NCBI GenBank assembly: GCA_017513905.1
Contig: JAFWMR010000003.1
Span: 3,544-67,543 of the forward strand
Length of the DNA: 64,000 bases
Direction of reading: 5' to 3'
From: Candidatus Saccharimonadota bacterium
GTDB taxonomy: Bacteria; Patescibacteriota; Saccharimonadia; Saccharimonadales; Saccharimonadaceae
Shown here: in pieces, positions 1,814 to 37,127 of the stretch
Layout: each line of letters begins with the position of its first letter
Numbering within the stretch: position 1 is the stretch's first letter
Position numbers and translations under genes: made by a program
Notes under the pieces: model-generated
What the model was told of the DNA's origin: nothing
Databases searched by the model: none
What the model saw: only the letters and a program-made list of their open reading frames with translations

Positions 1814-1838
1814 AAAATACTCCCATATAAACCAAGAC

Positions 1839-1868
1839 AAAAAATATCCCCCGCGGGGGATATTTTTT
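1839..1868. terminator. bidirectional rho-independent terminator between convergent genes
   Basis: Perfect palindrome ATATCCCCCG/CGGGGGATAT, flanked by an A-run on one side and a T-run on the other. Confidence 0.8.
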
Positions 1869-1873
1869 GCAAC

Positions 1874-2515
1874 TTATTTAGTTGCGTTCTTCCATGCCTT
1901 TTTTGCTTCACTGGCTAAATTCTTAGCAGCTTCTTTTGCGTCTTTAGCAATGCTATCAAGCTCTTTCTTCGCTTTAAGCTCTGGATGCGCCTCAGCATAT
2001 CGTTCAATCGAAGCAGCGATAACTTTCTTCGCTTCTTCAATACCGGCGAATTCTTTCACTTCGGTCGAGCCCGGCTTCTTGAGATCCTTATAATGATTGA
2101 AGTGGAAACGGATTTGTTCAATCAGCTGCTTTGGCAAATCCTCAAACGTCTGATATTTATCGCCATTATTACGATCATCTTCAGGAACAGCAATAATCTT
2201 ATCGTCAACCTCACCACCATCAACAAACTTCATCACGCCAAGAATGCGGGCTTTTAGCCAAATACCAGTCGTGAGTGGCTGGTCGGTGATCATGAGCACA
2301 TCAAGCTCGTCGCCATCTTCATCAATCGTACGTGGAATGAATCCATAGTTACATGGTTTTGCGAAAGCAATTGGCTCCACACGATCAAGCATAAAGCAAG
2401 CATGTTCTCTATCCCACTCAATCTTGTGGTTGCTGCCAGTTGGAATTTCAATTACAACGTTAAGCTCACCATTTTTATAATCCCCCGGTTCTAAGACTTT
2501 GTTAAAATCAGCCAT
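1874..2515 (-). CDS. ppa: family I soluble inorganic pyrophosphatase with a Lys/Ala-rich C-terminal extension
   Basis: Sequence LNVVIEIPTGSNHKIEWD...DGDELDVLMI is typical of PPase. The ATG at 2515 is preceded by AAGGAG. The 20 codons upstream in the ORF track lack an SD and look spurious. Confidence 0.9.
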   Translation of the reverse strand: MADFNKVLEPGDYKNGELNVVIEIPTGSNHKIEWDREHACFMLDRVEPIAFAKPCNYGFIPRTIDEDGDELDVLMITDQPLTTGIWLKARILGVMKFVDGGEVDDKIIAVPEDDRNNGDKYQTFEDLPKQLIEQIRFHFNHYKDLKKPGSTEVKEFAGIEEAKKVIAASIERYAEAHPELKAKKELDSIAKDAKEAAKNLASEAKKAWKNATK

Positions 2516-2589
2516 AAAAACTCCTTTTAGTATGCACCAATTATAGCACAATAATACAATAGCATAGCCCCACATGTTATAATAAGCTT

Positions 2590-4017
2590 ATGATAAACGA
2601 AGCATCTTCTGCGCCAAAGGTAAAAAATACCGATGCGCCAACTAAGCCAATCAAAAAAACACCGCCGGCTGAAGAAATTCGGCCATCACAAAACACAGCA
2701 AACACAGAAGCCGAACCAACTAATAAAGGCATCAGTCCAGCTATCATTGTCCTCATTGTGATATTATCTGCTGCGCTTCTCGCTGGACTCGTTTTTGGTA
2801 TCGCAGCACTCTTTAAAAGCAATCGACCGTATCATATCGAAAGATTCCGAGAGCAAACGTACTATATTATAGATAGAGATTACGACGGCGAATACGATTT
2901 ACAGTATAAGTTGTTTGATGACGACGATCTATATACCTACTATTTTTCCTCAGACAAAGAGCAACCTCTGATCGAACGGGACGAAGAATTAGAAGAAGAA
3001 CCACAATACAACAATTGCGACGCATATCCAGAAGGTGAAGAAAGAGATAACTGTATTACTTTAAGCCCCGATGATGACGATGATGACGATGATTACTACG
3101 ATGATGACTATTATTACGACTATCCAGACGTCTCCGAAATTGTCGATTACGATACTTACGAAGAATACTGCGCCAGATGGGGCTATAATCAGAAATACAC
3201 CGATCCAACCAAGCGATACGCTCTTTTTTCGTACATTTCATACGGCTCCCCAACAATCCAAGCGCGTCTTTCGCACGTCTCATTCGACGACGATACTATC
3301 ACCCTCTACGTGTGGGATAACACCAACGGAGTTACGGCTGATAATGTCGGTTACCTAATTGTAGTTCCATTCGACAATAGAGAAATAATCGACCTCGCAA
3401 CAGTTGGCCTCTTTACACAAGAAGAATTCAATCAGGTTAAGCAAGGTAGAATCATTGATTATCCTGTCGCCGAAAAACCGATAGTCTACCTGTATCCACA
3501 AGAAGAAATCGAAGTTTCCGTTGAGCTCGGCCAATCCGACCTGCTTACGGTCTCTTATCCAAAATACAACAACGGGTGGAATGTTATAGCAAAGCCAAAC
3601 GGCACACTTATCGATTTAAATACCAATCGTGAACTCTACTCACTTTATTACGAAAGTAAGACCATAGAAAAACCAGAGCTCACTGAAGGGTTTGTCGTTA
3701 AAGGCGAAGATTCGGCCAAGTTCCTCGAAGAAAAGCTCGAAACCCTCGGGCTTACTGAGCGCGAAGCTGAAGAATTTATCGTCTACTGGCTGCCAAAACT
3801 AGAAGCAAACAACTATAACTTAATTCGTTTTGAAACAGCTGAAGAAATCACCAAGAATATGCCGCTCAACATCTCTCCGGCACCAGATACGGTTATCCGC
3901 GTAATTATGGACTTCAAAGCTCTAGATGAAGAGATAGAAATCAAAGAGCAGGTCTTAAAAGCTTCAATTCGTACCGGGTTTACCGTGGTTGAATGGGGTG
4001 GCTCAGAGCTAAAATAA
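2590..4017 (+). CDS. membrane-anchored hypothetical protein with an Asp/Tyr-rich acidic tract and a conserved-looking C-terminal domain
   Basis: Low-complexity N-terminus, one TM segment (ISPAIIVLIVILSAALLAGLVFGIAALF) and a D8 run. The C-terminal domain ends in FTVVEWGG. The family is unknown to me. Confidence 0.7.
   Translation: MINEASSAPKVKNTDAPTKPIKKTPPAEEIRPSQNTANTEAEPTNKGISPAIIVLIVILSAALLAGLVFGIAALFKSNRPYHIERFREQTYYIIDRDYDGEYDLQYKLFDDDDLYTYYFSSDKEQPLIERDEELEEEPQYNNCDAYPEGEERDNCITLSPDDDDDDDDYYDDDYYYDYPDVSEIVDYDTYEEYCARWGYNQKYTDPTKRYALFSYISYGSPTIQARLSHVSFDDDTITLYVWDNTNGVTADNVGYLIVVPFDNREIIDLATVGLFTQEEFNQVKQGRIIDYPVAEKPIVYLYPQEEIEVSVELGQSDLLTVSYPKYNNGWNVIAKPNGTLIDLNTNRELYSLYYESKTIEKPELTEGFVVKGEDSAKFLEEKLETLGLTEREAEEFIVYWLPKLEANNYNLIRFETAEEITKNMPLNISPAPDTVIRVIMDFKALDEEIEIKEQVLKASIRTGFTVVEWGGSELK
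3070..3093 (+). repeat. GAT/GAC trinucleotide run encoding poly-Asp
   Basis: gatgatgacgatgatgacgatgat lies inside the 2590..4017 CDS. Confidence 0.8.
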
Positions 4018-4044
4018 TAAAATATTCTGAACAAATAATTTATA

Positions 4045-4074
4045 CAGATAGCCAACACTTGGCTATCTGTTTTT
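4045..4074. terminator. rho-independent terminator (11-bp stem) between convergent genes
   Basis: CAGATAGCCAA-cac-TTGGCTATCTG followed by TTTTT. Confidence 0.8.
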
Positions 4075-5260
4075 ATATAGTACTCTTAAATATTTTTTCG
4101 TCTTTAATCTCGTCGGGCAAATAATTTTTATCAAGATGAAAACCAGATTCCCATTTTTGCCCCTCACCAAACCCCAACTCCTTCATCAACTTCGTCGGTG
4201 CGTTTCTGAGCCACGTCGGCACAGGTAGCCCCATCGACTTCTTCGCGAGATCTTGCGCAGCATACCATGCATCGGCCGAGTCTCGATTCTTTTTTGACTT
4301 AGATAAAGCAATACATGCGTGTGCAAGAATCAAACCCGATTCGGGCATGCCAACTCGTTCTACGGCCTGAAAACACGCCGTAGCAAGACTGAGCGCGCCA
4401 TTCCCGGCTAACCCGATATCTTCCGAAGCAAAAATTACCATGCGTCTCGCAATAAACTTCGGATCTTCGCCAGCCTCTACCATCCTAGCGAGATAATACA
4501 ATGCTGCATCCGTATCACTTCCACGCATCGATTTAATAAATGCAGAGATGTTGTCATAGTGAGCATCACCTTTTTTATCGTAACCAGGGACCTTTTTCCC
4601 AGCCGCAACCTTCACGGTTTCAACATCAATCTTATCCCTCGCAAGGCTCATCGCAAGTTCGAGATCCCCCAGTGCACTTCTAGCGTCCCCACCGGATAAC
4701 TCTGCAAGGTAATCGATAGCATCCTTCGTCAGCTTCTTTTCGATTCCTTCCATCTTGGCGGCTCGCTTTATTACCTTTTTAATCGCATCTTTACTAAGTG
4801 GGGAAACAACCACCACCCTACTACGCGACAAAAGTGGCGCAATTACCTCAAAGCTCGGGTTTTCCGTCGTCGCACCAATCAAAATAATCAATCCCGATTC
4901 AACATGTGGCAAAAACGCATCTTGTTGCGCTTTATTAAATCTATGTATTTCATCTACAAATAACACCGTACGTGTCTTAAGATTCCAGTTCACTTTCGCA
5001 CGTTCGACTACGGCCTCAATATCTTTCTTACCTGAAGTAACCGCAGATATCTCCACGAAATCCGCATTATATTCTTTGGCGAGAATCTTTGCCATTGTAG
5101 TCTTGCCTGTCCCTGGCGGCCCCCAAAAAATCAGGTTCACCGGCTCGCCCTTCTTCACAATCTCTGTCAAAATCTTCCCAGGACCAATAATCTCGTCCTG
5201 CCCAATCACATCTGCGAGTTTCTCCGGTCTCATCCTCTCCGCTAACGGCACTCTGTTCAT
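4073..5260 (-). CDS. rarA: replication-associated recombination protein A (AAA+ ATPase)
   Basis: Walker A GPPGTGKTT, the motif VLFVDEIHRFNK, and a MgsA-type C-terminal domain. Confidence 0.9.
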   Translation of the reverse strand: MNRVPLAERMRPEKLADVIGQDEIIGPGKILTEIVKKGEPVNLIFWGPPGTGKTTMAKILAKEYNADFVEISAVTSGKKDIEAVVERAKVNWNLKTRTVLFVDEIHRFNKAQQDAFLPHVESGLIILIGATTENPSFEVIAPLLSRSRVVVVSPLSKDAIKKVIKRAAKMEGIEKKLTKDAIDYLAELSGGDARSALGDLELAMSLARDKIDVETVKVAAGKKVPGYDKKGDAHYDNISAFIKSMRGSDTDAALYYLARMVEAGEDPKFIARRMVIFASEDIGLAGNGALSLATACFQAVERVGMPESGLILAHACIALSKSKKNRDSADAWYAAQDLAKKSMGLPVPTWLRNAPTKLMKELGFGEGQKWESGFHLDKNYLPDEIKDEKIFKSTI

Positions 5261-5304
5261 ACCTCTATATTATAACACAGGTGTTTTTATGCTATAATTT
5301 CCCC

Positions 5305-5826
5305 ATGAAACTAATAGTCGCTTTTGGTAACCCAGGCTCCGAATACAATTTTACCCGCCACAACTACGGCTTCTTGGCGATAGATTTTTATTTCAAAATT
5401 AACAATCTAGAGTGGGAAACTCATGAGAAATTTAACTCAATCTGGAAGAAGCAAGACAACACAATCTTTATCAAGCCTCAAACATACTATAACGACATCG
5501 GAACCGCCGTCCGCACCTTCATGGATTTCTATAAAATCTCACCAGAAGATATCCTAATAGTCTGCGATGATTTCAATCTGCCTTTTGGCGAAGTGCGCGA
5601 ACGTGCTCATGGCTCCGCGGGCGGGAATAATGGTCTTAAATCCGTCATTTCTCATTTAGGCACTGAAAATTTTCCCCGCATTCGTCTCGGAACAGGAAAT
5701 AACACGCTCCGCGAAAAAATCGGTGATACTGATTTTGTACTTTCAAAATTTACAGATAGCGAAAAGAAGCAACTCCCAAAAATTCTTCTATCCGTCTCAG
5801 AGATAATCAAAACAAAGATCAACTAA
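5305..5826 (+). CDS. pth: peptidyl-tRNA hydrolase
   Basis: MKLIVAFGNPGSEYNFTRHNYGF is a Pth signature. TGcTATAAT (5290-5298) lies 6 nt upstream of the ATG at 5305. Confidence 0.9.
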   Translation: MKLIVAFGNPGSEYNFTRHNYGFLAIDFYFKINNLEWETHEKFNSIWKKQDNTIFIKPQTYYNDIGTAVRTFMDFYKISPEDILIVCDDFNLPFGEVRERAHGSAGGNNGLKSVISHLGTENFPRIRLGTGNNTLREKIGDTDFVLSKFTDSEKKQLPKILLSVSEIIKTKIN

Positions 5827-5835
5827 TTCAGATAC

Positions 5836-5896
5836 AAAAAAGCTCCACGGTGTAGGATAGGTAAGGGTGGGCATCACCTATCCTACACTGTAGAGC
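5836..5896 (-). terminator. strong rho-independent terminator of the candidate ncRNA
   Basis: On the minus strand: GCTCTACAGTGTAGGATAGGT, a 13-nt loop, ACCTATCCTACACCGTGGAGC, then TTTTTT. Confidence 0.8.
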
Positions 5897-6168
5897 CTTC
5901 TTGACACCCCACAACGCTTCTATTTGATACCGGGGAAGCCCCGGAAGCGCGACCCACCTCACACAAAATTGGGGCCCGCCGGTTATGGGGGTTGCTATGC
6001 CTTCGAATACCTCTCAAAGTGGAGGTAATACTTATAAGACTTAAAACCATTGAAGAAGAAATTAAAAGTCCGAGGGGTTTCAAAAGCACGCAACGTCTGT
6101 TACACTAAGTGTGCAACATCTGTTATAGTTTATTTAGGTACAGTTTAGAGCCTTAAAAGCTCTAACTT
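5836..6168 (-). ncRNA. candidate structured non-coding RNA of unknown class (about 330 nt)
   Basis: Bounded by a near-consensus promoter and a 21-bp-stem terminator on the minus strand. GC-rich nested helices sit in an AT-rich genome. The only ORF (GTG-started, 68 aa) has no SD. Confidence 0.55.
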
Positions 6169-6174
6169 GGATTC

Positions 6175-6203
6175 ATTATACCACAGTAGTTTATAAAAGT
6201 CAA
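6175..6203 (-). promoter_or_regulatory. near-consensus sigma70-type promoter driving the candidate ncRNA
   Basis: On the minus strand: TTGACT, a 17-nt spacer ending in TGg, then TATAAT. The predicted TSS is near 6168. Confidence 0.7.
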
Positions 6204-6222
6204 TACTATTTTCACATTTTTT

Positions 6223-7104
6223 ATGAAAATCAACGAAATACGACCCCAAGACAACGATTATTTACAGATATTAAATTCCATTGCGCTTACGCCTAAATTA
6301 TTGTATTACTATGGAAATTGGCCAGAAAAGCGCATCAAAACCGTTGCTATTGTAGGCGCTCGTAAAAATACTAAATATGGAGAAGAAATCGCTTATAAAT
6401 TAGCCAAGACCTTAGGAGAAAGGGGAATTATCGTCATTTCTGGCCTTGCATACGGCATTGACTCTATTGCGGCCCGTGGCTGTCTAGACGGCGGCGGTAA
6501 GACAATAGCTATATTAGGTACAGAAATCGAACGAATCTACCCTCGCGAGCATATACCACTTGCTAGCAGAATCGTTGAAAATGGTGGCGTAGTCGCTAGT
6601 GAATACCACCTTGGCGATGATCTCGGCAAACATCGTGCTAGTTTTTTATTCCGCAACCGTATCATCTCCGCACTAGCTGATGCCGTAGTGGTTATTGAAG
6701 CGCGGGAAAGATCCGGTTCTCTTAATACTGCCGCCCATGCAATCGAACAGGGGAAAGACCTCTTTGCCGTGCCAGGAGACATTAATCGGCAAACCAGTCA
6801 AGGCTGTAATCGCCTCATTATGAGCGGAGCAAATCCCTTCCTAGGCATCGAGGATTTTCTTAAAACGATTCTTCCAAATAATAAAACGCGCTCCAAAAAA
6901 GCCCAAGAAGCTCAAATCTCGCTCTTTGCCAGCAACAATGACGAGCGCGCCATTATGCAACTTTTATCTGAAGATATCCGCGACGGAGACATCATAATGG
7001 AGCAACTTGGCATGGACGTCTCGACCTTCAACCAAACGGTTACCACGCTAGAAATAAAAGGAGCGATTCGCTCACTGGGCGCCAATTATTGGACTTTAGC
7101 TTGA
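6223..7104 (+). CDS. dprA: DNA processing protein DprA (Smf)
   Basis: DprA Rossmann core: VAIVGARK...GLAYGIDSIAARG...FLFRNRIISALADAVVVIEA..SGSLNTA. Confidence 0.9.
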   Translation: MKINEIRPQDNDYLQILNSIALTPKLLYYYGNWPEKRIKTVAIVGARKNTKYGEEIAYKLAKTLGERGIIVISGLAYGIDSIAARGCLDGGGKTIAILGTEIERIYPREHIPLASRIVENGGVVASEYHLGDDLGKHRASFLFRNRIISALADAVVVIEARERSGSLNTAAHAIEQGKDLFAVPGDINRQTSQGCNRLIMSGANPFLGIEDFLKTILPNNKTRSKKAQEAQISLFASNNDERAIMQLLSEDIRDGDIIMEQLGMDVSTFNQTVTTLEIKGAIRSLGANYWTLA

Positions 7105-7126
7105 CAAGTATGTTAATATAATAGTT

Positions 7127-9463
7127 ATGCCCAAGAACTTAGTAATCGTTGAGTCTCCAGCCAAAGCCAAAACTATTGAAAAATATTTAGGACATGATTT
7201 TCGTGTCATGTCAAGCGTAGGGCACATTCGAAAAGACACCAAAGTTGATGTAAAAAACGATTTTGCCGTCACTTATGAAATAGATCCTGGTCACGCCAAA
7301 GTCGTATCAGAATTGAAAAAAGCCGTCAAATCTGCCAATACCGTTTGGCTAGCGACCGATGAAGATCGCGAAGGAGAATCAATTTCTTGGCACTTGCTCG
7401 AGGTCCTCAAGCTACCTAAAACAACACACCGTATCACTTTTCATGAAATCACTAAGCCCGCACTAGAAGCGGCCATTAAGGCTCCTAGAACCGTAGATAT
7501 GGCCATGGTCTCATCTCAACAAGCCCGCCAGACACTTGATATGCTAGTTGGTTTCGATCTCTCTGGTGTTGTTCGTAGAAAAGTCCCTGGCGCCATTTCT
7601 GCAGGTCGTGTTCAATCTCCTGCATTAAGGCTTATAGTAGAAAAAGAACGCGAAATTGAGCAGACTAAAGAAAAGTACTCTTTCAAAGTTACTGGTGATT
7701 TCATCGACATTAAAAAACACGTTTTTATTGGATCGCTTGAAAAGACCGCGCCAGCAAGCGAGAAAGACGCCGAAAAGCTTCTAGATTCACTAAAAGAAGC
7801 CAAATATACTGTTTCTGCCGTAGAAAAAACTGAAGGCATTAAGCCTAATCCGGTTCCATTCGCTACTGCCGCTCTACAAATCGAGGCCAATAGCAGATTA
7901 GGCTTCTCTTCTAGCACGACGATGCGTGCCGCACAAGGTCTTTATCAGGCTGGCCATATTACTTATCACCGCACTGATTCACTTAACTTATCTAAGCAGG
8001 CTCTTGGATCTATTGCTCACTATATAGAAACTAAATTCGGCAAAGAATACCTCCACACGAGGAATTTCAAAACGCATTCCGCCGGAGCCCAAGAAGCCCA
8101 CGAAGCTATTCGTCCAACCCATATTGAAATCGAGTCTGCCGGATCCAATGATTACGAAAGAAAACTTTACAAGCTTATCCGTGCTCGCACTCTTGCAACT
8201 CAAATGACAAACGCTATAGTTGCCAAAACGGTTATATCCCTCAAACCAGACAAAGCGCCGTCGAAAAATTTCGTCGCTCGTGGAGAAGTAGTAGTCTTCG
8301 ATGGTTTTCTTAAGGTGTATGGCAAATCCAAAGATTTAGAACTTCCGAATCTAAAACAAGGTGATATAGTCAGCGCTATCAAGATTACGGCTCGCCAAAC
8401 TTTTGCTAAACCACCGGCACGATATACCGAAGGCTCGCTCGTCAAGAAACTCGAAGAACTCGGCATTGGTCGCCCATCAACCTATGCTTCTATTATGACC
8501 GCCATCCAATCACGTGGCTACGTCAAAAAAGGAGAATCTGAAGGCAAAGATCGCGAAGTCATCGAATATACCTTGGAACATTCCACAGTTAGCAAAAACA
8601 CTGTACTTGAGAAGACCGGCGCCAACAAAGGTAAACTCATACCGACACCGATAGGTGAACTTGTCTCCGACTTTCTCACAGAGAATTTCGACCAAATAGT
8701 CGACTATGGCTTCACCGCTGACGTGGAACAAAAGCTTGATCGTATTGCCGAGAAAAAGCTCGAACGCGTACGCATGCTACGTGACTTCTATACTCCGTTC
8801 TCTCAACTTATCGACCGTTCATCCTTCCTAGAGCGTTACAACTCTGCTACCGAATTAGGAATTGATCCCGAAAGTGGGAAAAAGATATTTGCAAAAATCG
8901 GAAAAAATGGTGGTTTTATCCAGCTTGGAGAAAACGAAAAGGAGACCGGCGAAAAGCCTCGCTTCGCCCCATTGCCAAAAGGCAAGACCACCAAGGATGT
9001 TACCTTAGAAGAAGCAATTAAGCAACTCTCTTTACCTACACTACCGAGAAGCCTCGGCCAAGCCAAAGACGGCACTGAAATTATTGCCGCGTCTGGCCCA
9101 TTTGGACCATACTTAAAAGCAGGTAAGTACAATATCACGATTAAGGGTAAAGATCCTTACACTATCTCTCTTAACGAAGCTACGATTCTGTACAATGAAA
9201 AACTAAAAAGTATCATCAAAGATTTTGAAAATGGCATTATGATCCTAAATGGCGCCTATGGCCCATACATTAAAGGCTGCGGTCGACGCAATAATCTCAA
9301 AATTCCGAAAGAAATAGACGCAAAAAAAATCACAAAAAAGCAAGCCGAAGATATGCTCTTCAAAAAATTTGGCACTAAAGCGTTACCAGGGAACGATGCG
9401 CTCAAAAAGACCGTAAAAAAATCTAAAAAATCTGCTCGTAAAACCACAAGCAAAAAAGCATAA
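7127..9463 (+). CDS. topA: DNA topoisomerase I (type IA) with a lysine-rich C-terminal tail
   Basis: TOPRIM N-terminus LVIVESPAKAKTIEKYLG and the active-site region GHITYHRTDS. I saw no obvious Cys4 zinc fingers in the C-terminal part. Confidence 0.9.
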   Translation: MPKNLVIVESPAKAKTIEKYLGHDFRVMSSVGHIRKDTKVDVKNDFAVTYEIDPGHAKVVSELKKAVKSANTVWLATDEDREGESISWHLLEVLKLPKTTHRITFHEITKPALEAAIKAPRTVDMAMVSSQQARQTLDMLVGFDLSGVVRRKVPGAISAGRVQSPALRLIVEKEREIEQTKEKYSFKVTGDFIDIKKHVFIGSLEKTAPASEKDAEKLLDSLKEAKYTVSAVEKTEGIKPNPVPFATAALQIEANSRLGFSSSTTMRAAQGLYQAGHITYHRTDSLNLSKQALGSIAHYIETKFGKEYLHTRNFKTHSAGAQEAHEAIRPTHIEIESAGSNDYERKLYKLIRARTLATQMTNAIVAKTVISLKPDKAPSKNFVARGEVVVFDGFLKVYGKSKDLELPNLKQGDIVSAIKITARQTFAKPPARYTEGSLVKKLEELGIGRPSTYASIMTAIQSRGYVKKGESEGKDREVIEYTLEHSTVSKNTVLEKTGANKGKLIPTPIGELVSDFLTENFDQIVDYGFTADVEQKLDRIAEKKLERVRMLRDFYTPFSQLIDRSSFLERYNSATELGIDPESGKKIFAKIGKNGGFIQLGENEKETGEKPRFAPLPKGKTTKDVTLEEAIKQLSLPTLPRSLGQAKDGTEIIAASGPFGPYLKAGKYNITIKGKDPYTISLNEATILYNEKLKSIIKDFENGIMILNGAYGPYIKGCGRRNNLKIPKEIDAKKITKKQAEDMLFKKFGTKALPGNDALKKTVKKSKKSARKTTSKKA

Positions 9464-9569
9464 TAAACATAAAAAGTAAACTTTTTTACAATTTTCTTGC
9501 AATAATTGTAAAATTTGTGATACAATAATTCGAAAGATAACGCGCACCTTAAATAACAGCATAAATCAT

Positions 9570-9598
9570 TTGACATAGATGCCAATTTATGCTATATT
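9570..9598 (+). promoter_or_regulatory. putative sigma70-type promoter upstream of 9649 CDS
   Basis: TTGACA, a 17-nt spacer, then TATATT. Confidence 0.5.
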
Positions 9599-9648
9599 AT
9601 ATTTTAAGTTTCAATATTATTAACGGGGTGGAAATAAGGAAATAACCA

Positions 9649-10689
9649 ATGGAACAAAACGCCGACCTGGTCGCGAAAGCGATTAAAGGCAGTCTCAGTA
9701 TTATCGACCAAGACCGCGAGCGCAAAATCGTTGAGAAACGTTTTGGCCTCGACGGTCAGAAAGAGACTCTCGAGCAAATCGGAGAAACATTATCCGTCAC
9801 CAGGGAACGCGTTCGTCAATTGGAAAAAGTCATCCTCGTTCGTCTTCGCATCGCTGCCAGCCAAGGGAAAATACCGGATTTAGCTGGCGCCGAAAAAATC
9901 ATCATCAGGAATCTAGCCGAGCTTGGACGCGTAGCTAAAGTTACTGAGCTTGCCAACAAAATCTTCGGGAACAAAGCCACTAACGCTAACCACGCCACTA
10001 TCTGCTTCTTAGCTGATATATCCGCTAGCCTCACGGTCGTTACGGAAAACGACCGCTATTTTAACGCAATAGGCATTGCCGATGCAGGGGACGAAAAGAC
10101 CATCCGTGGCAAAGTTGACGAAATCGTCAAAATCATAAAGGAAAATAAAGCTCCACTCACTCTTGATGATCTAGACAACAGGCTCAACTACGAACATCCA
10201 TCCCAGATTGCAGCCGTAGCATCCGTATCTAAACAACTAGCATCACTCAATGGGCTCTGGGGTCTTGCTAAATGGCCATCTGTCAACCCAAAGAACATCC
10301 GTGATAAAATTTACGTCATTCTAGAAACAAACAAAGAACCGATGCATTTCAATGACATCGCCTCCGCTATTGCCGAAAGCAACTTCAAACGCAAGAATGT
10401 CACGACTCAAGCTATTCACAACGAACTAATCAAAGATCCTCGCTTTGTCCTCATTGGACGCGGTATTTATGCTCTGGATAGCTGGGGATACAAAAAGGGA
10501 ACTGTTTCCGAAATCATCACCGATGCCCTTAAGAGAGCCGGCCGTCCTCTTTCTCGCGAAGAAATTGTCGCCGAAGTCATGAAATCCCGTAAAGTTAAAG
10601 AGACCACAATTCTGCTGAATCTTCAAAACAAAAAGCTTTTTGACAAAGTCGACAAAAACGCATTTGTGCTCCACGAAGACAAAGCATAA
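9649..10689 (+). CDS. sigma-70 region-4-like HTH protein with repeated HARE-HTH/RpoE-delta-like winged-helix modules
   Basis: The N-terminus ETLEQIGETLSVTRERVRQLEKVIL resembles sigma region 4.2. Two to three repeats of the type 'name..PL(T/H)..(D/E)I...I' follow. No sigma region 2 is present. Confidence 0.7.
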   Translation: MEQNADLVAKAIKGSLSIIDQDRERKIVEKRFGLDGQKETLEQIGETLSVTRERVRQLEKVILVRLRIAASQGKIPDLAGAEKIIIRNLAELGRVAKVTELANKIFGNKATNANHATICFLADISASLTVVTENDRYFNAIGIADAGDEKTIRGKVDEIVKIIKENKAPLTLDDLDNRLNYEHPSQIAAVASVSKQLASLNGLWGLAKWPSVNPKNIRDKIYVILETNKEPMHFNDIASAIAESNFKRKNVTTQAIHNELIKDPRFVLIGRGIYALDSWGYKKGTVSEIITDALKRAGRPLSREEIVAEVMKSRKVKETTILLNLQNKKLFDKVDKNAFVLHEDKA

Positions 10690-26229: not shown

Positions 26230-26306
26230 GCGAATGTAGCTCAGTTGTTTAGAGCGCTTCCTTGCCAAGGAAGAGGTCGAGAGTTAGAGTCTCTTCATTC
26301 GCACCA
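26230..26306 (+). tRNA. tRNA-Gly (anticodon GCC), CCA encoded
   Basis: Manual cloverleaf: acceptor GCGAATG/CATTCGC, D stem GCTC/GAGC, anticodon stem CTTCC/GGAAG with loop TTGCCAA, and T stem GAGAG/CTCTT. The T loop is unusual (TTAGAGT) and the D loop lacks GG. Confidence 0.85.
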
Positions 26307-27840
26307 TAAGAGAATTTGAAGGCTCTTCGGAGCCTTTTTTGATTGGTTTTAATCTGTAAATTGGGCAAATATTTTGTGTGTAAACATTTTTATTATCGTC
26401 CACGAAAAAACCGTCCGGAAATAGTAATTGTTTACACAATCGCATTTCTTTGGGCGGAAGACAGAGGACATTGTGAGCAAGGTTATCAATGAATCCAATG
26501 GCGAATCCGCAGAAGTCATCGAGTCTCAAGGCATCAATATCCCCAAGCTCATTTATATCCCTATCGTAACCCTTAATCCTATCCATGGCTTCCTCGTATT
26601 CGCTCTTAATCCTATCCTTCATCGGTCCAGGTTGCTCTAATAGGTATTGGCTGAAAAGTTTATCAGCCCTTTCCTTTACTCTAGCGCGTTGAGAATGCAG
26701 TTGCAGGGATTTGGACTCAAAGTCACCTTCTTCCAAGTCAAATACAGTCGACAGCGAGTCTTGAATGGCCTTCTGCCCACTCTTTGTCAGCTCCATAGAG
26801 GATACTACCTCCTTAACTTTCTCCTGTACTTCTTCCCTCGGAATCGACATATAGCATCCTCGACAGCGGTATTTGTCATATTTGCTTCCTCGATTATTTG
26901 CAACAGTGACGCCTACGAGGACATTGTATTTTGATTTAGTGCATGGGCAACCAACGTGCGTAATCATCTGGTTGAACGGGTAAAGGGGGTTGCCGGCGGG
27001 GTTGGGCCCCTTTTGATTCTTGGGTTTGTTGTTGAATGCCTCGACTATTCTTTCATGTTGTTCTCTAGTTATGAGCTTCTCGTGTAAGCCATTGGGATTA
27101 TACGCATCCACTACTTTATGCATTTCTACGACACCACAGAGGTACGGGTCAATACAAGCAGCCCGCCATTTATCCATCTTTAGCGGAGCCTTCTTTATTC
27201 CTGCTAATTCAATCGAACGATTATAGTCCCGCAGAGCAACCGTAGTGCTAACTAGGCCGTCTGCAATTCCTATTAGTTGAGCCTTAAACAGTGGCCCAAT
27301 GACTGGATCTATCACGGCTATCCCAGGTTTTGGCCCACGCATATAGCCCAACTTAGGAGGAAACGGGTAACGACCGTCCCTGATGGCTTTCTCGTGGCCC
27401 GCTTTGGTTTTCCTGGCTCTTTCCTCGTTGCTCGCTTCTCCGGCGCCAAGCGCCATGCTAAGCATTATCTTCCCGGTCGAGTCCTTGTGATTATACTTCT
27501 CGTCGGAGAAAAGAATCTCAACGCCACGTTTCTGGAATTCCACGATAAACCAACCGGCTTCATTAATCGAGCGCATGAAGCGGTCCGGTTCGTCAACTAT
27601 AACGTACTTAATCTGTTTATTTCTACTACAGAAATCCAGAGCTTCGAGCAGGTCCTTCCTATAGATGTTCTTCCCGCACTTACTAGAATAACTTCCGCTC
27701 CATATCTTTACTATCTCTAGGTTGTGCTTTTCCGCAACATTTCTAACGGACTCTTCTTGCCTGCTAAGGCTGTTATTCTTCAATTGTTCATCAGAAGAAA
27801 CCCTACAAAGGGCGATTGCTTTTTGCCTTGTCTCGTTCAT
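26284..27840 (-). CDS. large serine recombinase (integrase)
   Basis: Resolvase catalytic domain AIALCRVSSDEQ..SLSRQ, a recombinase domain, a Cys zinc ribbon (CPC...CRGC) and a coiled-coil. The ATG at 27840 has a GAGG SD. The 28 codons upstream in the ORF track were discarded. Confidence 0.85.
   Translation of the reverse strand: MNETRQKAIALCRVSSDEQLKNNSLSRQEESVRNVAEKHNLEIVKIWSGSYSSKCGKNIYRKDLLEALDFCSRNKQIKYVIVDEPDRFMRSINEAGWFIVEFQKRGVEILFSDEKYNHKDSTGKIMLSMALGAGEASNEERARKTKAGHEKAIRDGRYPFPPKLGYMRGPKPGIAVIDPVIGPLFKAQLIGIADGLVSTTVALRDYNRSIELAGIKKAPLKMDKWRAACIDPYLCGVVEMHKVVDAYNPNGLHEKLITREQHERIVEAFNNKPKNQKGPNPAGNPLYPFNQMITHVGCPCTKSKYNVLVGVTVANNRGSKYDKYRCRGCYMSIPREEVQEKVKEVVSSMELTKSGQKAIQDSLSTVFDLEEGDFESKSLQLHSQRARVKERADKLFSQYLLEQPGPMKDRIKSEYEEAMDRIKGYDRDINELGDIDALRLDDFCGFAIGFIDNLAHNVLCLPPKEMRLCKQLLFPDGFFVDDNKNVYTQNICPIYRLKPIKKGSEEPSNSLMVRMKRL
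26319..26340 (+). terminator. rho-independent terminator after tRNA-Gly
   Basis: AAGGCTC-ttcg-GAGCCTT followed by TTTT. It lies inside the 3' end of the recombinase ORF on the opposite strand. Confidence 0.7.
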
Positions 27841-27926
27841 GATTAACCTCACGGACAATATGGGGGGCTCCCTGGACAAGACATTCCGAAGAACCTCTAT
27901 GGAAGCACCCCATATTGCCAACAAAG

Positions 27927-28118
27927 TTAATTGGCGTTAACTGGTTCTTCGTTATCATAAATTGTCTTGTCCAATTCCATTATCTCATCTTTCTCATGTT
28001 TACGCCATAGGTCATATAGGTACTTTAAGAAATTAGTCGCACAATCCTGTTCTATCTTCGTGTAGCCTGCCTTGCAGACGCGTCCAGATGGGTTGTTGGG
28101 GGCGACTTTTTTATCCAT
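27927..28118 (-). CDS. hypothetical small protein (63 aa) directly upstream of the recombinase; possible directionality or DNA-binding factor
   Basis: The call rests on position only. I recognise no motif. Confidence 0.35.
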   Translation of the reverse strand: MDKKVAPNNPSGRVCKAGYTKIEQDCATNFLKYLYDLWRKHEKDEIMELDKTIYDNEEPVNAN

Positions 28119-28170
28119 GTCCCAAGTCTAAACCAACCATTAGAAGCGATAAATGACGAGCGGAGAGATT

Positions 28171-28947
28171 CTAAACAGACTTTAAACCGACTGCTTGTCC
28201 AACAATTAATTCGTAATAGTCTACTCTACGCCCAGCCTTGTGGGAGGCTATATCTATTTCGTGGCTTACATCTCGTAATGCCTTCTTAGTCTCCGAGATT
28301 GCGTCATTCCTTGCTGGGTCATCAACCTCATCACGGAAACGGGAGATGACTCCTTCAATCCCTTTTGCGGACACAGTATGCTCATCCGCCAGCAGGAACT
28401 CTTCTAGTACGGCCTCGCGCAATGGCGAATTGTTGATACCAGTGAGCAGGGCGCCATCGTAATAATAGCTTCCCAAATTATCTTTCTGAAACTTCCCGTA
28501 CAACTTCTTTTTCAGCACGGATTCAATTAATTGATCCAGGTCGGTATCGTAGATGTCTAGGGCGATGGCAGGAAAAGAATCGGGCGGGAATCCACTGACG
28601 AACGGGACCATCATCTGAGGATTCCAGCCATAGTCTTCCCCCAAGTGTCCCTGGCATAAAGCCAGAGATTGTTCATACTCGAAAGTATTGTTTGGCCGAT
28701 AAAAATGCAACAAATTCTTTTCGGAAAGAACTCGGAGCCACTTCAGAATAATGGGTTCAGTCAACGTTTCGTCACCGACCTGCGTAGGATGAAACCAGAA
28801 TTGGCAGGAGCGGCCGTTCACAAGGAACTGTTCCCGAATCTCTTCGACAACCTTCTTCAAAACCTTTCTACTCCCCTCGCTATATTCATTCATATCGAAT
28901 GGGATCATATACGCATTGTAACATGCTGAATCCGCTAGTGATTCCAC
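28171..28947 (-). CDS. hypothetical protein (258 aa; GTG start, alternative ATG at 28908)
   Basis: Long ORF with normal amino-acid composition. I recognise no motif. Confidence 0.55.
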   Translation of the reverse strand: MESLADSACYNAYMIPFDMNEYSEGSRKVLKKVVEEIREQFLVNGRSCQFWFHPTQVGDETLTEPIILKWLRVLSEKNLLHFYRPNNTFEYEQSLALCQGHLGEDYGWNPQMMVPFVSGFPPDSFPAIALDIYDTDLDQLIESVLKKKLYGKFQKDNLGSYYYDGALLTGINNSPLREAVLEEFLLADEHTVSAKGIEGVISRFRDEVDDPARNDAISETKKALRDVSHEIDIASHKAGRRVDYYELIVGQAVGLKSV

Positions 28948-29057
28948 TTTTAACAGAGGTAAAAACGTTCCTCGTGTTATATTAGTACAGAGAAAAAACT
29001 TGGTTCATAGCAATCAACGGCTTTTGCTTATATAAAGTTTGACTTATCTTGACTTCG

Positions 29058-30287
29058 CTATTTTTCTTTTGTGCAATACGGGCAATGAATATCGTCTAGT
29101 ATATCGTGAGGTGCTGTTTCCCACTCATGCCCTTTAGGACACTTCCACCAGACTTTCTTATTTGAGCTCGGGGTAATACTCGATGGCTCTGTGGCTCCAT
29201 TTTTTTCGTAGTTCCACAGCTTCAATAGATCTTGTCTAACAGTGGCCAAGTCGTTATATCCCACAATCAACTCGGTGGATGCACATTTCGGACACTTTGC
29301 GCCGTTGCATTCACTCGACACGGTACGCATGTAACTATACCCACAGTCCACACATTTCCACCAGGCTTTCATTCTTGACCACCTAGACACGCTTTCGATG
29401 TTTACTACATTCTTTTCGTAGTCCCACTTTTCTGAAATACCGGGAAAAGTTTTAATGGATTCGATAACAGTGCTGTCATTGTACAGGTCATATATCTCCT
29501 GGATATCCCTAGGTATATCAACATCAGACTCATCTACCCCTAGATAGTGAAGTACCCAGATTATTGCGGGTTTAAGGTAACTATAGTCACTGGTTATTTT
29601 GTCTACAACGAAATCTACAGATGTGCTGTTTAGCTTAGGTAACAACGGCTCTCGGACGCGTAGCAACATAATGCCGAGGCTGCTGCAGAGTTGGTTCTTC
29701 TTGATGTCTCTGTCGATGTCCTCATGCCAGTACTGCCCGTCATACTCTATTGCTATGCTTTTGCTGGGGATGAATATATCAACTTCCTTCTTCCCGTCTA
29801 TTTTTTTATTCTCTTCAACTTGGAACCCTGCCTTCCGAAGATAGTAGACAATAGCCTTTTCTGGGACAGAGGTAATCTTGTACATGTTACAGATTGGACA
29901 CGAATGATTTTTGTTTCTGCTATATATTCTGGCTTTCCACTCATGCCCTTTAGGACATTTCCACCATACAGTCTTTGTCGATCCAGCTATAACATCAGAT
30001 GGTTTGAGGTTACCATTTTTCGTGTAATTCCATTCTGCAGCGAGTTCCGGGTTGAGTGTTTCAAGGTCGTTAAAGCCCTTCAAAACTCTCCTATTTGAAC
30101 AAAACGGGCAACCTTGTCCTTTGGATACATTGTATGGCGCAGCTTGCCACTCATGTCCTCTTTCGCACTTCCACCAAACCTTTTTCCCACTGCCAGAGGT
30201 TACATCCTTAAAAGCAAGGCCAAGCTCATCATTTCGTTTATGATTCCAATACTTAGCCAACTCTGGGTGTTCGTCTTTAAGAAGCAT
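29058..30287 (-). CDS. four-zinc-ribbon protein with a central PD-(D/E)XK (Vsr/DUF559-like) nuclease-like domain
   Basis: The unit (K)VWWKC..GHEW....CP.C occurs four times. The central segment VDIFIPSKSIAIEYDGQYWH resembles restriction-endonuclease-fold proteins. TGcTATAAT lies 8 nt before the ATG. Confidence 0.7.
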   Translation of the reverse strand: MLLKDEHPELAKYWNHKRNDELGLAFKDVTSGSGKKVWWKCERGHEWQAAPYNVSKGQGCPFCSNRRVLKGFNDLETLNPELAAEWNYTKNGNLKPSDVIAGSTKTVWWKCPKGHEWKARIYSRNKNHSCPICNMYKITSVPEKAIVYYLRKAGFQVEENKKIDGKKEVDIFIPSKSIAIEYDGQYWHEDIDRDIKKNQLCSSLGIMLLRVREPLLPKLNSTSVDFVVDKITSDYSYLKPAIIWVLHYLGVDESDVDIPRDIQEIYDLYNDSTVIESIKTFPGISEKWDYEKNVVNIESVSRWSRMKAWWKCVDCGYSYMRTVSSECNGAKCPKCASTELIVGYNDLATVRQDLLKLWNYEKNGATEPSSITPSSNKKVWWKCPKGHEWETAPHDILDDIHCPYCTKEK

Positions 30288-30384
30288 ATGGGTAAATTAT
30301 AGCATATCGCGATTATAGCGATGGGATACATCGGGCGACGAATGTTTGGTCCAACTGGTATGGTATAATATCAATAACATCATG

Positions 30385-31101
30385 AGTAATCTTGACGAGT
30401 CAATCGAAAAAGCATCCGGAATCGAGAAAGTTCGATTAGTCTTAAGGAGGGCAGGTGTCGCTCTTATCGAAGATTTTTCGAGACATGAGAAGCCGCTCCC
30501 AGAATTAATTGACTGCCTGACGAAGGCATATATCTACGTATGCGATTCTTTCTACAACATGAAGTTTCTCGACATTGATAATCCAGTTTTTAAACATAAG
30601 GAAATAGTAGAATTATTCGACGGTTTGGATAAAGACAAGGAACGTGCTTTAACTATAGGTTCACGCATATGGGGAGTAGCAGTGGGGATGGCGGTTTACA
30701 AATCAGCTAAAGAAACAGGATTAGGGGTCGATTATTCAGCTGTCAGCAACTTCCTTTACGGCCTTCCATATAAGGATAAGCTCAAAAAAGAGATTATAGA
30801 AAACTCTATAAGGACAATCAATCTGTTTAAAGTCGACGATGAGGCTCATAAGTTGTCCGTGAAGCATAACGATCATGCCTTCTTCGGCCAAGTAATCACA
30901 TCAAGGGATTTAATGAGGATTTATTTGTCACTGGTAGATATAAAAAACACAGATGACGAAATCGAAGAGTGGTTTAACGCGGGGAATTTCGTAAACCCTT
31001 CGTTTACAATAGGATGTTGGACGGCCATTTCTACGTCCTATGCCCATTTAGACGTTTCGAAAGCCGTAAAAGAGATACAAGACGAATCCTTGATTAAATA
31101 A
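30385..31101 (+). CDS. hypothetical protein (238 aa from the ATG at 30385; the ORF track starts at 30346)
   Basis: Divergent from the nuclease gene. TGgTATAAT lies 13 nt before the ATG at 30385. No motif recognised. Confidence 0.55.
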   Translation, partial: SNLDESIEKASGIEKVRLVLRRAGVALIEDFSRHEKPLPELIDCLTKAYIYVCDSFYNMKFLDIDNPVFKHKEIVELFDGLDKDKERALTIGSRIWGVAVGMAVYKSAKETGLGVDYSAVSNFLYGLPYKDKLKKEIIENSIRTINLFKVDDEAHKLSVKHNDHAFFGQVITSRDLMRIYLSLVDIKNTDDEIEEWFNAGNFVNPSFTIGCWTAISTSYAHLDVSKAVKEIQDESLIK

Positions 31102-31347
31102 CATCCCTCGCCAAACAAAGTCTAAGCTACAACAGAACATAAAGGACGCATCGACAAGGTCGATGCTGAGGGGTGCGGTCGATGGGGGCTCTTCCATACC
31201 ATTGCTGTAAAATCGGTAGTAATGGGATAGTGTGGTGTGTAATAGGTAGGAAGAGGGGGAGGGGTGGTATGAATAGTAGGAATAGTTGTAGATATTGGTG
31301 TGATGGTTATGATTAATAGAGTCACTGCGTTTAGTAGAAATGGTCAT
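31048..31347 (-). CDS. possible small protein (99 aa), Tyr/His/Ser/Thr/Pro-rich, encoded across a G-free stretch of mRNA
   Basis: Its ATG overlaps the stop of the upstream 69-aa ORF (ATGA). The composition is odd, and the 3' end overlaps the convergent 30385..31101 CDS. Confidence 0.3.
   Translation of the reverse strand: MTISTKRSDSINHNHHTNIYNYSYYSYHPSPSSYLLHTTLSHYYRFYSNGMEEPPSTAPLSIDLVDASFMFCCSLDFVWRGMLFNQGFVLYLFYGFRNV
31215..31322. other. 108-nt tract with no C on the plus strand (no G on the minus strand)
   Basis: Direct reading shows C at 31214 and the next C at 31323. The tract contains GGGGGAGGGGTGG. Confidence 0.9.
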
Positions 31348-31553
31348 ACGAGCACACCGCTTTCGAGCTTGAAATTTGCGTAATTAACAGAGAGGATTGA
31401 CTGCCATCTCTTCAGTTCTTCCATGATTACCTGCCTGTCTTCGGCCGTATATTCTAACACCTTGCTCACAGGGGTAGCGTTGGTGGGCGGATTATTGTGT
31501 AAATTTTCGCCCTTATGGAGCACCATTTTTATTCCAAGACCCAAAAGGGTCAT
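31344..31553 (-). CDS. hypothetical small protein (69 aa; alternative start gives 60 aa)
   Basis: ATGA overlap with the downstream ORF suggests translational coupling. Confidence 0.35.
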   Translation of the reverse strand: MTLLGLGIKMVLHKGENLHNNPPTNATPVSKVLEYTAEDRQVIMEELKRWQSILSVNYANFKLESGVLV

Positions 31554-36110: not shown

Positions 36111-37127
36111 CTAGCCCCTCGGAGGTTCTCCTTCTGGTTCTCCCATTAACTTCTTACTTTTAATCTCGTATCTTAATCCCGTCACAGGAGAGACGTAATA
36201 ATCTTCATTCAGGAGATTCACGAACATTGCCAAGTCCTTATCGTCCATAATAATAATCGATTTGTCGTCATCAGTCATTAAATCGAGCTGCATATCGTCA
36301 GAATAATCAAGCATTTGTTCTTGAGTCATAGTTTCATTAATATTGAGGTTTTGAATCTTCTTAAGAAGCGGCTTTTTATCCTGCAAAAGCGTGTTCAACG
36401 TTAAACCTTCTGCGAAGCTCAGTTTATATTTTTCCTGAAGTTCCTTAGCTTTAGCATCAGCCAACAGCTGCGATTTATAGTCATATTGGAACAATGTTTC
36501 AAACTTGGTCTGGTTAAAGACAATAATGTTCCCGTCTATAATCGCCACCTGGTTATCCTCCGGCATTTTGATCGCAACTTCTGCCGAAAACGGCTCAAAG
36601 CTCTCACCATTCAACTCCCAGCTCGTCGCACCTTTTAACGCACTCGATGCCGGCAAGGCCTTAACGATATAAAACGATTTTGTTCCATCGTCACCTCCAG
36701 GATAGCTGAACTTTGCTAAAATCCCCTTTATCTTCTTAAACTCATATTCGTTATCCGTAAAGAAATCGATATCCTTATACTCATTTTCAATTAAATGAAT
36801 CAGCGTTTCTGCACGACCAACGTTTTCAAGCTTAGTATGGTAAATTACCTTATCTTCACCGTCACTTTTCTCGTACTCGCGACATTCCAAACCCTTATCA
36901 GCTTCTTTTATGATATACCCTGTTACTTCAAGCATGAACATTGCCTTAACCGAAGCAGTTAACTTGTCACTATACCGAACCTTATATGGTGTGTAATTCC
37001 TATTAAATAAGAATAGTTCTACGCTGACATTGTTTTTTACTTCTTCTACTTCATTCGCCCACTGGAACACATCAAAGAACCCACGCTGTACATCCTGAAC
37101 GTCAGAAGTGTCTGTATTTTCTTCCAT
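36111..37127 (-). CDS. hypothetical protein (338 aa); possibly DUF4868/KwaB-like (assignment from memory, unverified)
   Basis: Acidic, soluble and about 300-340 aa, with its own terminator. I can point to no catalytic motif. Confidence 0.6.
   Translation of the reverse strand: MEENTDTSDVQDVQRGFFDVFQWANEVEEVKNNVSVELFLFNRNYTPYKVRYSDKLTASVKAMFMLEVTGYIIKEADKGLECREYEKSDGEDKVIYHTKLENVGRAETLIHLIENEYKDIDFFTDNEYEFKKIKGILAKFSYPGGDDGTKSFYIVKALPASSALKGATSWELNGESFEPFSAEVAIKMPEDNQVAIIDGNIIVFNQTKFETLFQYDYKSQLLADAKAKELQEKYKLSFAEGLTLNTLLQDKKPLLKKIQNLNINETMTQEQMLDYSDDMQLDLMTDDDKSIIIMDDKDLAMFVNLLNEDYYVSPVTGLRYEIKSKKLMGEPEGEPPRG

Follow-up and report, generated by a model that had tools for sequence, protein, structure and literature searches.

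The 64,000-nucleotide stretch of contig JAFWMR010000003.1 from Candidatus Saccharimonadota bacterium analysed here, hereafter the window, contains a 5,219-bp integrative element (26301–31526) whose target is the 3′ end of a tRNA-Gly(GCC) gene, and this element carries a 409-residue protein in which two zinc ribbons on each side enclose a Vsr-like nuclease core. The comparisons described below establish the limits of the element, its division into backbone and cargo genes, the domain content of the nuclease and the absence of conserved partners around it; on balance, the nuclease would probably act alone, its ribbons reading a long DNA site and its core cutting it in the manner of a free-standing homing endonuclease. 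A preliminary description of this DNA had joined the nuclease to three neighbouring genes, encoding proteins of 258, 63 and 238 residues, as one candidate defence or addiction system. All four open reading frames (ORFs) are present on the strands it gave, but the grouping does not hold: the 258- and 63-residue proteins follow the recombinase of the element, thousands of members of the nuclease family occur without those two genes, and a survey of 80 loci shows no conserved neighbour, and relatives of the third protein stand beside a methylase.

Domain architecture of the nuclease

The protein and its core occupy the following positions.

29058–30287, minus strand: 409-residue cargo nuclease, with two DUF4379 ribbons, a Vsr/EDxHD-like core and two further DUF4379 ribbons
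29493–29873, minus strand: nuclease core, residues 139–265, with the pattern E-x-D ... E-Y-D-G ... H ... K-N

Four copies of DUF4379 (PF14311) are recognized in the protein with E 8.6e-68 and 224.9 bits, against a family cutoff of 24.5 bits, placing zinc-ribbon units at about residues 31–66, 101–136, 302–338 and 373–408. This reproduces the arrangement given in the preliminary description, two ribbons on each side of a Vsr-like core; the resemblance to Vsr lies below curated thresholds. All four ribbons carry the ligand pattern C..H/C..CxxC; three of them are of the form C..H..CxxC, and the third is a divergent CxxC..CxxC form, AWWKCVDCGYSY..KCPKC.

The core sequence VDIFIPSKSIAIEYDGQYWH is confirmed in the protein, and an alignment of nine sequences (A5) keeps E33, D35, E46, Y47, D48, G49, H53, K62 and N63 invariant, an acidic and histidine pattern of the catalytic type. 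Its Pfam matches to DUF559 (PF04480; 14.4 against 20.6 bits) and DUF2726 lie under their thresholds, as does that to Vsr TIGR00632 (E 0.0034; 17.6 against 97.85 bits). In a comparison of the core profile with the PDB, the homing endonuclease I-Bth0305I (3r3p) is the sole match under E 0.1, with E 0.0042 and 20.4 bits. PHROGs returns phrog_559, phrog_681 and phrog_3339, which are annotated as HNH or (homing) endonucleases. Judged from these sequence comparisons, the likeness of the core to the MTES_1575/DUF559/Vsr fold is real, though below the curated cutoffs. Among defence models, PADLOC-DB 2.0 gives only a local, 80-residue match of the nuclease to DruE3 (E 7.5e-5), and none that spans its full length.

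The protein belongs to a very large family: of 8,000 candidates scored, at least 6,269 pass the E 0.001 threshold. The majority are proteins of 620–700 residues from gut Clostridia, and members also reside in phages (214 phage records with a match), islands and giant viruses. Identity to many DUF4379 plus MTES_1575 members ranges from 29 to 65%. Few of the 120 listed relatives are as short as the window protein with its 409 residues; the majority measure about 620–700 residues and hold more ribbons. The window protein is best described as a compact 2+2 member of a known, functionally untested family.

Limits of the integrative element and its attachment sites

The element is bounded by attachment (att) sites and carries its own recombinase.

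26230–26306, plus strand: tRNA-Gly(GCC) (ARAGORN), the integration target; its last bases lie within the crossover core
26301–26307: attL, left copy of the 7-bp crossover core GCACCAT
31520–31526: attR, right copy of the 7-bp core GCACCAT
26284–27924, minus strand: large serine recombinase, 546 residues from a TTG start or 518 residues from an ATG at 27840
31344–31553, minus strand: 69-residue ORF, of which 31344–31519 is the detached last 58 recombinase codons as read in the circle

The genes had been placed on a mobile island, and a serine recombinase, att sites and an empty site bear this out. The empty site, contig L012 from the same species, consists of the left and right flanks of the window joined through a single GCACCAT, and both junctions in the window were fixed by alignment with it. 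Contigs with the island (L009–L011) and the one without it were recovered together by a look-up of the neighbouring LemA protein. The tRNA-Gly gene is intact in the empty site and also flanks the element in the sister loci L021–L024. A repeat finder missed the 7-bp core as a flanking direct repeat, and the core emerged only from the empty site. Furthermore, attL, attR, attB and the attP of a relative align base for base around ATGGTGC; this attP form is known from a related element, whose recombinase is 64% identical, and not from the window element.

That relative is a sister element recovered as two circular contigs of 4,062 bp, L006 (4203 nt) and L007 (4092 nt). They come from two separate assemblies, and their ends overlap by 141 and 30 nt, matching the k of the assembler. 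Each circle holds the recombinase, a 76-residue gene, a 247-residue gene and homologues of the 258- and 63-residue genes, together with the attP form. The element family exists as a free circle, excised or plasmid-like. Defined attL and attR sites in the window, an unoccupied attB in a relative and a circular form with attP are together the marks of an integrative element.

The recombinase matches Resolvase (PF00239, E 3.3e-21) in Pfam and the integrase family phrog_95 (E 2.3e-41) in PHROGs, and a Resolvase catalytic domain within a protein of more than 400 residues identifies a large-serine-recombinase element. Its identity to the recombinases of sister elements is 58–78%. The 3′ end of its gene reaches 23 nt into tRNA-Gly, such that the last five codons and the stop lie in tRNA-derived host DNA.

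The attP site lies inside the recombinase gene, and integration exchanges the last 58 codons for five tRNA-derived ones (..NSLMV, junction, RMKRL, stop). In all integrated copies, the detached tail persists at the far end with its reading frame intact. In the window this is the 69-residue ORF, which is 50% identical to the C-terminus of the 604-residue recombinase of the L006/L007 circles and is retained at the far end of L021–L024 (52–57% identity). Through this C-terminal swap, recombinase activity or direction could depend on the integration state. A terminator-like hairpin of the element is positioned just after tRNA-Gly at 26318–26337, inside the recombinase coding end, and the original terminator-like hairpin of tRNA-Gly is shifted 5.2 kb to the far junction (31538–31551).

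In the genome records of element carriers the organisms are named as Candidatus Saccharibacteria and Candidatus Nanosyncoccus, and the runs derive from metagenomes of gut and bovine origin; the host of the window element is read as a Saccharibacterium of gut or rumen. A search of the available literature found no paper on serine-recombinase integrative elements in Saccharibacteria.

Backbone genes and the variable cargo slot

Two of the three neighbours lie between the nuclease and the recombinase.

27927–28118, minus strand: 63-residue gene, backbone, separated by 2 nt from the recombinase gene downstream
28171–28947, minus strand: 258-residue ORF, backbone, a predicted winged-helix DNA binder

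Eight element variants were compared, represented by the window, L001–L004, L006–L008, L021, L022, L023, L024 and L111. In every inspected locus, a homologue of the 258-residue gene is followed by one of the 63-residue gene and then by the recombinase, whatever the cargo. The 258-residue protein has seven database homologues in addition to those of L021–L024 and L111, and its identity across the collinear elements (L001–L004, L006–L008, L021–L024 and L111) is 42–55%; direct inspection covered the families P0001, P0005 and P0006, the P0007-like gene of L111 and four further loci from genome records. Homologues of the 63-residue protein (41–65% identity) occupy the same position in L001–L004, L006–L008, L021–L024 and L111. 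Because the two genes adjoin the recombinase in all eight variants, with or without a nuclease, they are read from this comparison as backbone of the element and not as partners of the nuclease.

The start of the 258-residue ORF is probably Met14 (28908), giving 245 residues, a position on which gene callers and homologue alignment concur. In its AlphaFold2 (AF2) model, with a predicted local distance difference test (pLDDT) score of 75.6, the C-terminal region of about 100 residues matches OmpR/PhoB winged helices (Foldseek probability 0.99–1.0, template-modelling (TM) score 0.6–0.7). The model points to a DNA-binding regulator or replication initiator of the element. Over its full length the protein matches RepE weakly (Foldseek E 0.014, TM 0.25–0.28), and Pfam places Rep3_C WH2 below cutoff at E 0.024. 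Identification as a RepE/Rep3-type Rep initiator was set aside on these weak matches and the lack of iterons, and survives as a minority idea. The 63-residue protein is predicted to be a small recombinase accessory, possibly a recombination directionality factor. In line with the preliminary description, which had called all three neighbours unknown, the 258-, 63- and 239-residue proteins (the last is the third neighbour, with its length revised below) belong to no curated family: Pfam, NCBIfam, PHROGs and PADLOC gave nothing significant for them. A tblastn search of plasmids and phages found no match to the 258- and 239-residue proteins.

Bounded by the 258-residue gene on one side and the far att end on the other, the cargo slot has occupants that differ among the variants.

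Window element: 409-residue nuclease and the 239-residue gene
L001–L004: MzaB–E (PADLOC) and a Dcm methylase; in L001 at 610–7820
L006–L008: uncharacterized proteins of 247 and 76 residues
L021 and L022: membrane proteins
L023: C5-methylase and Bsp6I-type enzyme, a type II restriction–modification pair, at 8418–9966
L024: DUF4379 nuclease of 698 residues, 45% identical to the 409-residue protein
L111: DUF4379 nuclease of 620 residues, 60% identical to the 409-residue protein

A DUF4379 nuclease is present in three of the eight variants (window, L024 and L111), each time at the same edge of the slot, and missing from the other five. The L024 nuclease is only 45% identical to that of the window, whereas nucleases of foreign islands and of a phage reach 59–65%. 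Sequence comparison thus presents the nuclease as optional cargo, apparently captured independently at the same slot. The Mza and type II restriction–modification genes of sister slots confirm that this is a context in which defence genes ride.

Just beyond the far end of the L023 element, a 504-residue ORF (5787–7301) is 32% identical in its C-terminal part to the 409-residue nuclease core and has no DUF4379 match; it may represent a second nuclease island abutting the first.

Genomic neighbourhoods of the nuclease family

In the window and in six of seven other loci (L019/L020, L024, L027/L028, L029 and L111; the exception is L018), a large serine recombinase is encoded a few genes or less from the nuclease, and the recombinases near nuclease loci belong to at least four unrelated lineages. 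Specifically, relatives of 59–65% identity stand beside unrelated serine recombinases in L019, L027/L028 and L029, these recombinases being 20–25% identical to that of the window and to each other. The L018 relative follows a tape-measure gene in a phage tail module. In the neighbourhoods of the L018, L019, L027/L028 and L029 nucleases, no homologues of the 258-, 63- or 239-residue proteins were found. Among 80 metagenome loci sampled by means of a profile of the nuclease core, the sole recurring neighbour is a serine recombinase (6 of 80 loci), and in Sporosarcina phage Lietuvens a DUF4379 gene sits between the helicase and primase genes.

Components of a multi-gene system would be expected to travel together. 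Here the 258- and 63-residue genes track the recombinase, and the 239-residue gene tracks neither recombinase nor nuclease. According to the preliminary description, its proposal would fall if the partners resolved to ordinary metabolic or structural families and the gene set did not co-occur outside this genome; the set indeed does not co-occur elsewhere, but the partners do not resolve to such families.

The nearest nuclease relatives accompanied by serine recombinases lie at L019 2479–4136, L027/L028 3261–6165 and L029 1372–2967. In L019, the recombinase overlaps the 3′ end of tRNA-Gln (CTG) by 13 nt, and the island is again near an H+-PPase gene.

The 239-residue protein and the divergent spacer

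On the far side of the nuclease, a short spacer separates it from a gene on the opposite strand.

30288–30381: divergent spacer of 94 nt, containing the palindrome ATCGCGAT, a pair of GCTATAAT boxes (as read on the nuclease strand) and, ahead of the 239-residue gene, TGGTATAAT
30382–31101, plus strand: orphan cargo gene for a soluble, acidic protein of 239 residues, all alpha-helical in its model

The preliminary description had reported a divergent 238-residue gene across a 97-nt promoter region. The gene, the spacer and its motifs are present, with the lengths corrected to 239 residues (ATG at 30382) and 94 nt. ATTATAGC occurs at 30296–30303 and 30312–30319, corresponding to GCTATAAT on the nuclease strand; ATCGCGAT lies at 30306–30313 and TATAAT at 30364–30369. 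A sigma-70 scan of the island returned 11 promoter-like sites, compared with 11.7 in shuffles, so that the promoter boxes of the spacer are plausible and not statistically remarkable.

The 239-residue protein is rare, with two matches in a search of 5.8 billion proteins and 15 in a search of 1.84 billion representatives. Its remote relatives have an N-terminal membrane helix, which the window protein lacks. The AF2 model is all helical (pLDDT 87.8; predicted TM score 0.88; isoelectric point 5.45), and Foldseek found no match to it in the PDB or BFVD, the best E values of 0.1 and 0.3 being helical-bundle noise. Its PADLOC match is a spurious Csn2 fragment. A metagenome scan with the alignment of the protein returned nothing, and the 14-sequence alignment is too divergent for patterns.

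On contigs L005 and L026, two close relatives are encoded upstream of the gene for an Eco57I-type N6-methylase, and a Replic_Relax gene is also present. The two contigs represent one element type, as their methylases are 94% identical, and probably derive from a small plasmid in a related organism. No DUF4379 nuclease was found near relatives of the 239-residue protein at the loci examined, and no other examined member of the window's element family carries the 239-residue gene. The best reading of this protein is an independent accessory cargo, twice seen beside DNA-targeting enzymes.

Proposed mode of action and alternative explanations

In the favoured model, the four treble-clef zinc ribbons would serve as modular DNA-reading domains that position the central Vsr/EDxHD-type domain (E-x-D ... 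E-Y-D-G ... H ... K), which would then cut a long, rare DNA site. The targets would be DNA without the gene or the element, whether in a phage, in a rival element or in an empty allele, and the cut would either spread the gene through repair or exclude the competitor; the gene would profit, and with it the element on which it travels. DNA cleavage and site specificity are accordingly predicted properties of the 409-residue protein. Kinship to I-Bth0305I, residence in phages and introns and the apparent independent capture at the slot argue for homing. Several observations weigh against this model or its supporting roles. Homing is deduced from kinship only, because cleavage, a target site and a presence/absence pair have none of them been seen; no pair of otherwise identical alleles with and without the nuclease was found, and sister elements occur in both states. 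The 3r3p match is weak (E 0.0042), and the best-fitting Pfam family, MTES_1575 (PF18741), scores 27.1 against a cutoff of 38.2 bits. The nuclease domain is central here, compared with its C-terminal position in published intron-borne examples, and the same slot in sisters holds true defence systems (Mza in L001, type II restriction–modification in L023), which favours a defence role. As regards the element itself, the roles of the 258- and 63-residue proteins rest on position and a medium-confidence model, with no fold match at E 0.001, and iteron-like tandem repeats were not found. Excision or circle joints did not appear in the assembler contigs of four runs, in which the graph breaks at the shared tRNA, so that an absence of excision is not thereby shown.

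It is possible, though rather unlikely, that the nuclease is a single-gene anti-phage or anti-plasmid cargo, a solitary restriction-like enzyme that is modification-dependent or very site-specific, with the other three genes taking no part. The sister slots with MzaB–E plus Dcm (L001) and C5-methylase plus Bsp6I-type enzyme (L023) are consistent with such a role, as are the repeated placement of a DUF4379 nuclease along the same edge of the slot (window, L024 and L111, three of the eight variants), the presence of close relatives on four unrelated serine-recombinase islands and the weak local DruE3 match in PADLOC (E 7.5e-5). However, no PADLOC model covers the 409-residue protein, no methylase or immunity partner accompanies it, and the family is common inside phages and, according to PMC12350094, introns, a position typical of selfish nucleases and not of host defence. 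The recurrent proximity to serine recombinases allows a further idea, to which only a small probability is assigned, that the clade is tied functionally to serine-recombinase elements and is not random cargo; it would cut empty or rival-occupied sites, providing homing or addiction alongside site-specific recombination, and the 239-residue protein might modulate it.

The readings that join the nuclease to its neighbours are disfavoured because of the co-occurrence data. A toxin–immunity or addiction pair, in which the 239-residue protein restrains the nuclease and loss of the element kills the cell, would fit the divergent transcription from a common 94-nt spacer with a palindrome, the acidity of the 239-residue protein (isoelectric point 5.45), its fold without a match and the adjacency of its relatives to another DNA-targeting enzyme, the Eco57I-type methylase. 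Such a pair is nevertheless very unlikely, with no homologue of the 239-residue protein near the close nuclease relatives L018, L019, L024, L027–L029 and L111 and no DUF4379 nuclease near relatives of the 239-residue protein; moreover, the pattern of a DNA-enzyme neighbour comprises two independent cases only, since L005 and L026 are one element type. Least credible of all, and close to negligible, is a new multi-gene defence or addiction system formed by the 63-, 258-, 409- and 239-residue genes together. These genes lie side by side on a mobile island, three share a strand with short gaps, none has a known function, and the order nuclease, 258-residue gene, 63-residue gene, recombinase is repeated in L024 and L111; yet five of the eight variants have the 258- and 63-residue genes and the recombinase without the nuclease, the nuclease family overwhelmingly lacks those two genes, and the 239-residue gene is missing from every other examined element of the family.

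Remaining features of the window

31102–31343: non-coding stretch of the element (242 nt), containing a 108-nt run without C at 31215–31322

No tandem repeats of note were found in this stretch. A 99-codon ORF on the minus strand (31048–31347) overlaps it, and the ATGA at the start of this ORF overlaps the stop of the 69-residue ORF. It is possibly a decayed backbone gene. A more specific assignment, in which the ORFs of 99 and 67 codons within 31048–31347 (ORF99/ORF67) would be remnants of the 158-residue backbone gene of L023, L024 and L111, was rejected, as the likeness is restricted to the P/S/Y-rich, low-complexity tail of that gene, whose product measures 158–160 residues among the three (E 0.8).

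Outside the element, a solitary KwaB-like gene (36111–37127, minus strand) adjoins pcrA, with matches to PF16162 (E 1.9e-9) and PADLOC KwaB (E 1.1e-9) and an NCBIfam score far under cutoff. There is no KwaA-like membrane gene beside it, and the KwaB-like gene is also present in the empty-site strain L012.

Significance and comparison with known systems

Resolving backbone from cargo keeps mere adjacency from being recorded as a new four-gene defence system. In its place stands a tiny, tractable element family in Saccharibacteria, a group with few genetic tools, for which exact att sites, a natural circle and a three-gene backbone are in hand and which could become a starting point for integration vectors in these bacteria. 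Its cargo slot shows defence-gene movement among small-genome episymbionts. With its compact 2+2 layout, the nuclease extends the very large and untested outgroup of Vsr/EDxHD homing endonucleases, and the 239-residue protein, modelled with confidence, has a helical fold for which no structural relative was found in the PDB or BFVD.

The closest precedents for the nuclease are EDxHD homing endonucleases such as I-Bth0305I (PDB 3R3P), located in a phage intron, which resemble the 409-residue protein in their Vsr-like core, their residence in phages or mobile elements and their lack of a partner gene. CapR/DUF4379-like domains together with an EDxHD/Vsr-like nuclease domain have been described inside phage group I and II introns (PMC12350094, 2025), and this intron outgroup shares with the window protein several zinc-ribbon modules of about 60 residues, read as DNA-binding add-ons. 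Unlike these intron-borne EDxHD/CapR enzymes, the 409-residue protein has its nuclease domain in the centre, between 2+2 ribbons, and is encoded by a free-standing gene on a bacterial integrative element. The same domain content is found in DUF4379 plus MTES_1575 proteins, including Listeria phage P100 gp148, the gut Clostridia proteins of about 620–700 residues and the Lausannevirus/Insectomime 'putative restriction endonuclease', in which four DUF4379 units accompany a restriction endonuclease domain (PMC5513546); the window protein is shorter than most of the listed relatives. Defence islands enter the comparison through the sister elements, which carry Mza and type II restriction–modification systems (PADLOC) in the same slot, whereas the window cargo matches no defence model.

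Large serine recombinases also drive well-known elements and prophages, namely phiC31, Bxb1, TP901-1, SPbeta and the Ccr system of SCCmec. The window element resembles these in its Resolvase domain, a short core without long direct repeats, a small gene adjoining the recombinase and variable cargo. It differs in that the elements of its family are very small, at 4.1–5.2 kb in most variants and more than 10.6 kb in the Mza-carrying L001. A tRNA 3′ end is a target more usual for tyrosine integrases, and the combination of a Saccharibacteria host, a tRNA 3′-end target and an attP inside the recombinase gene further sets this family apart from those serine-recombinase systems.

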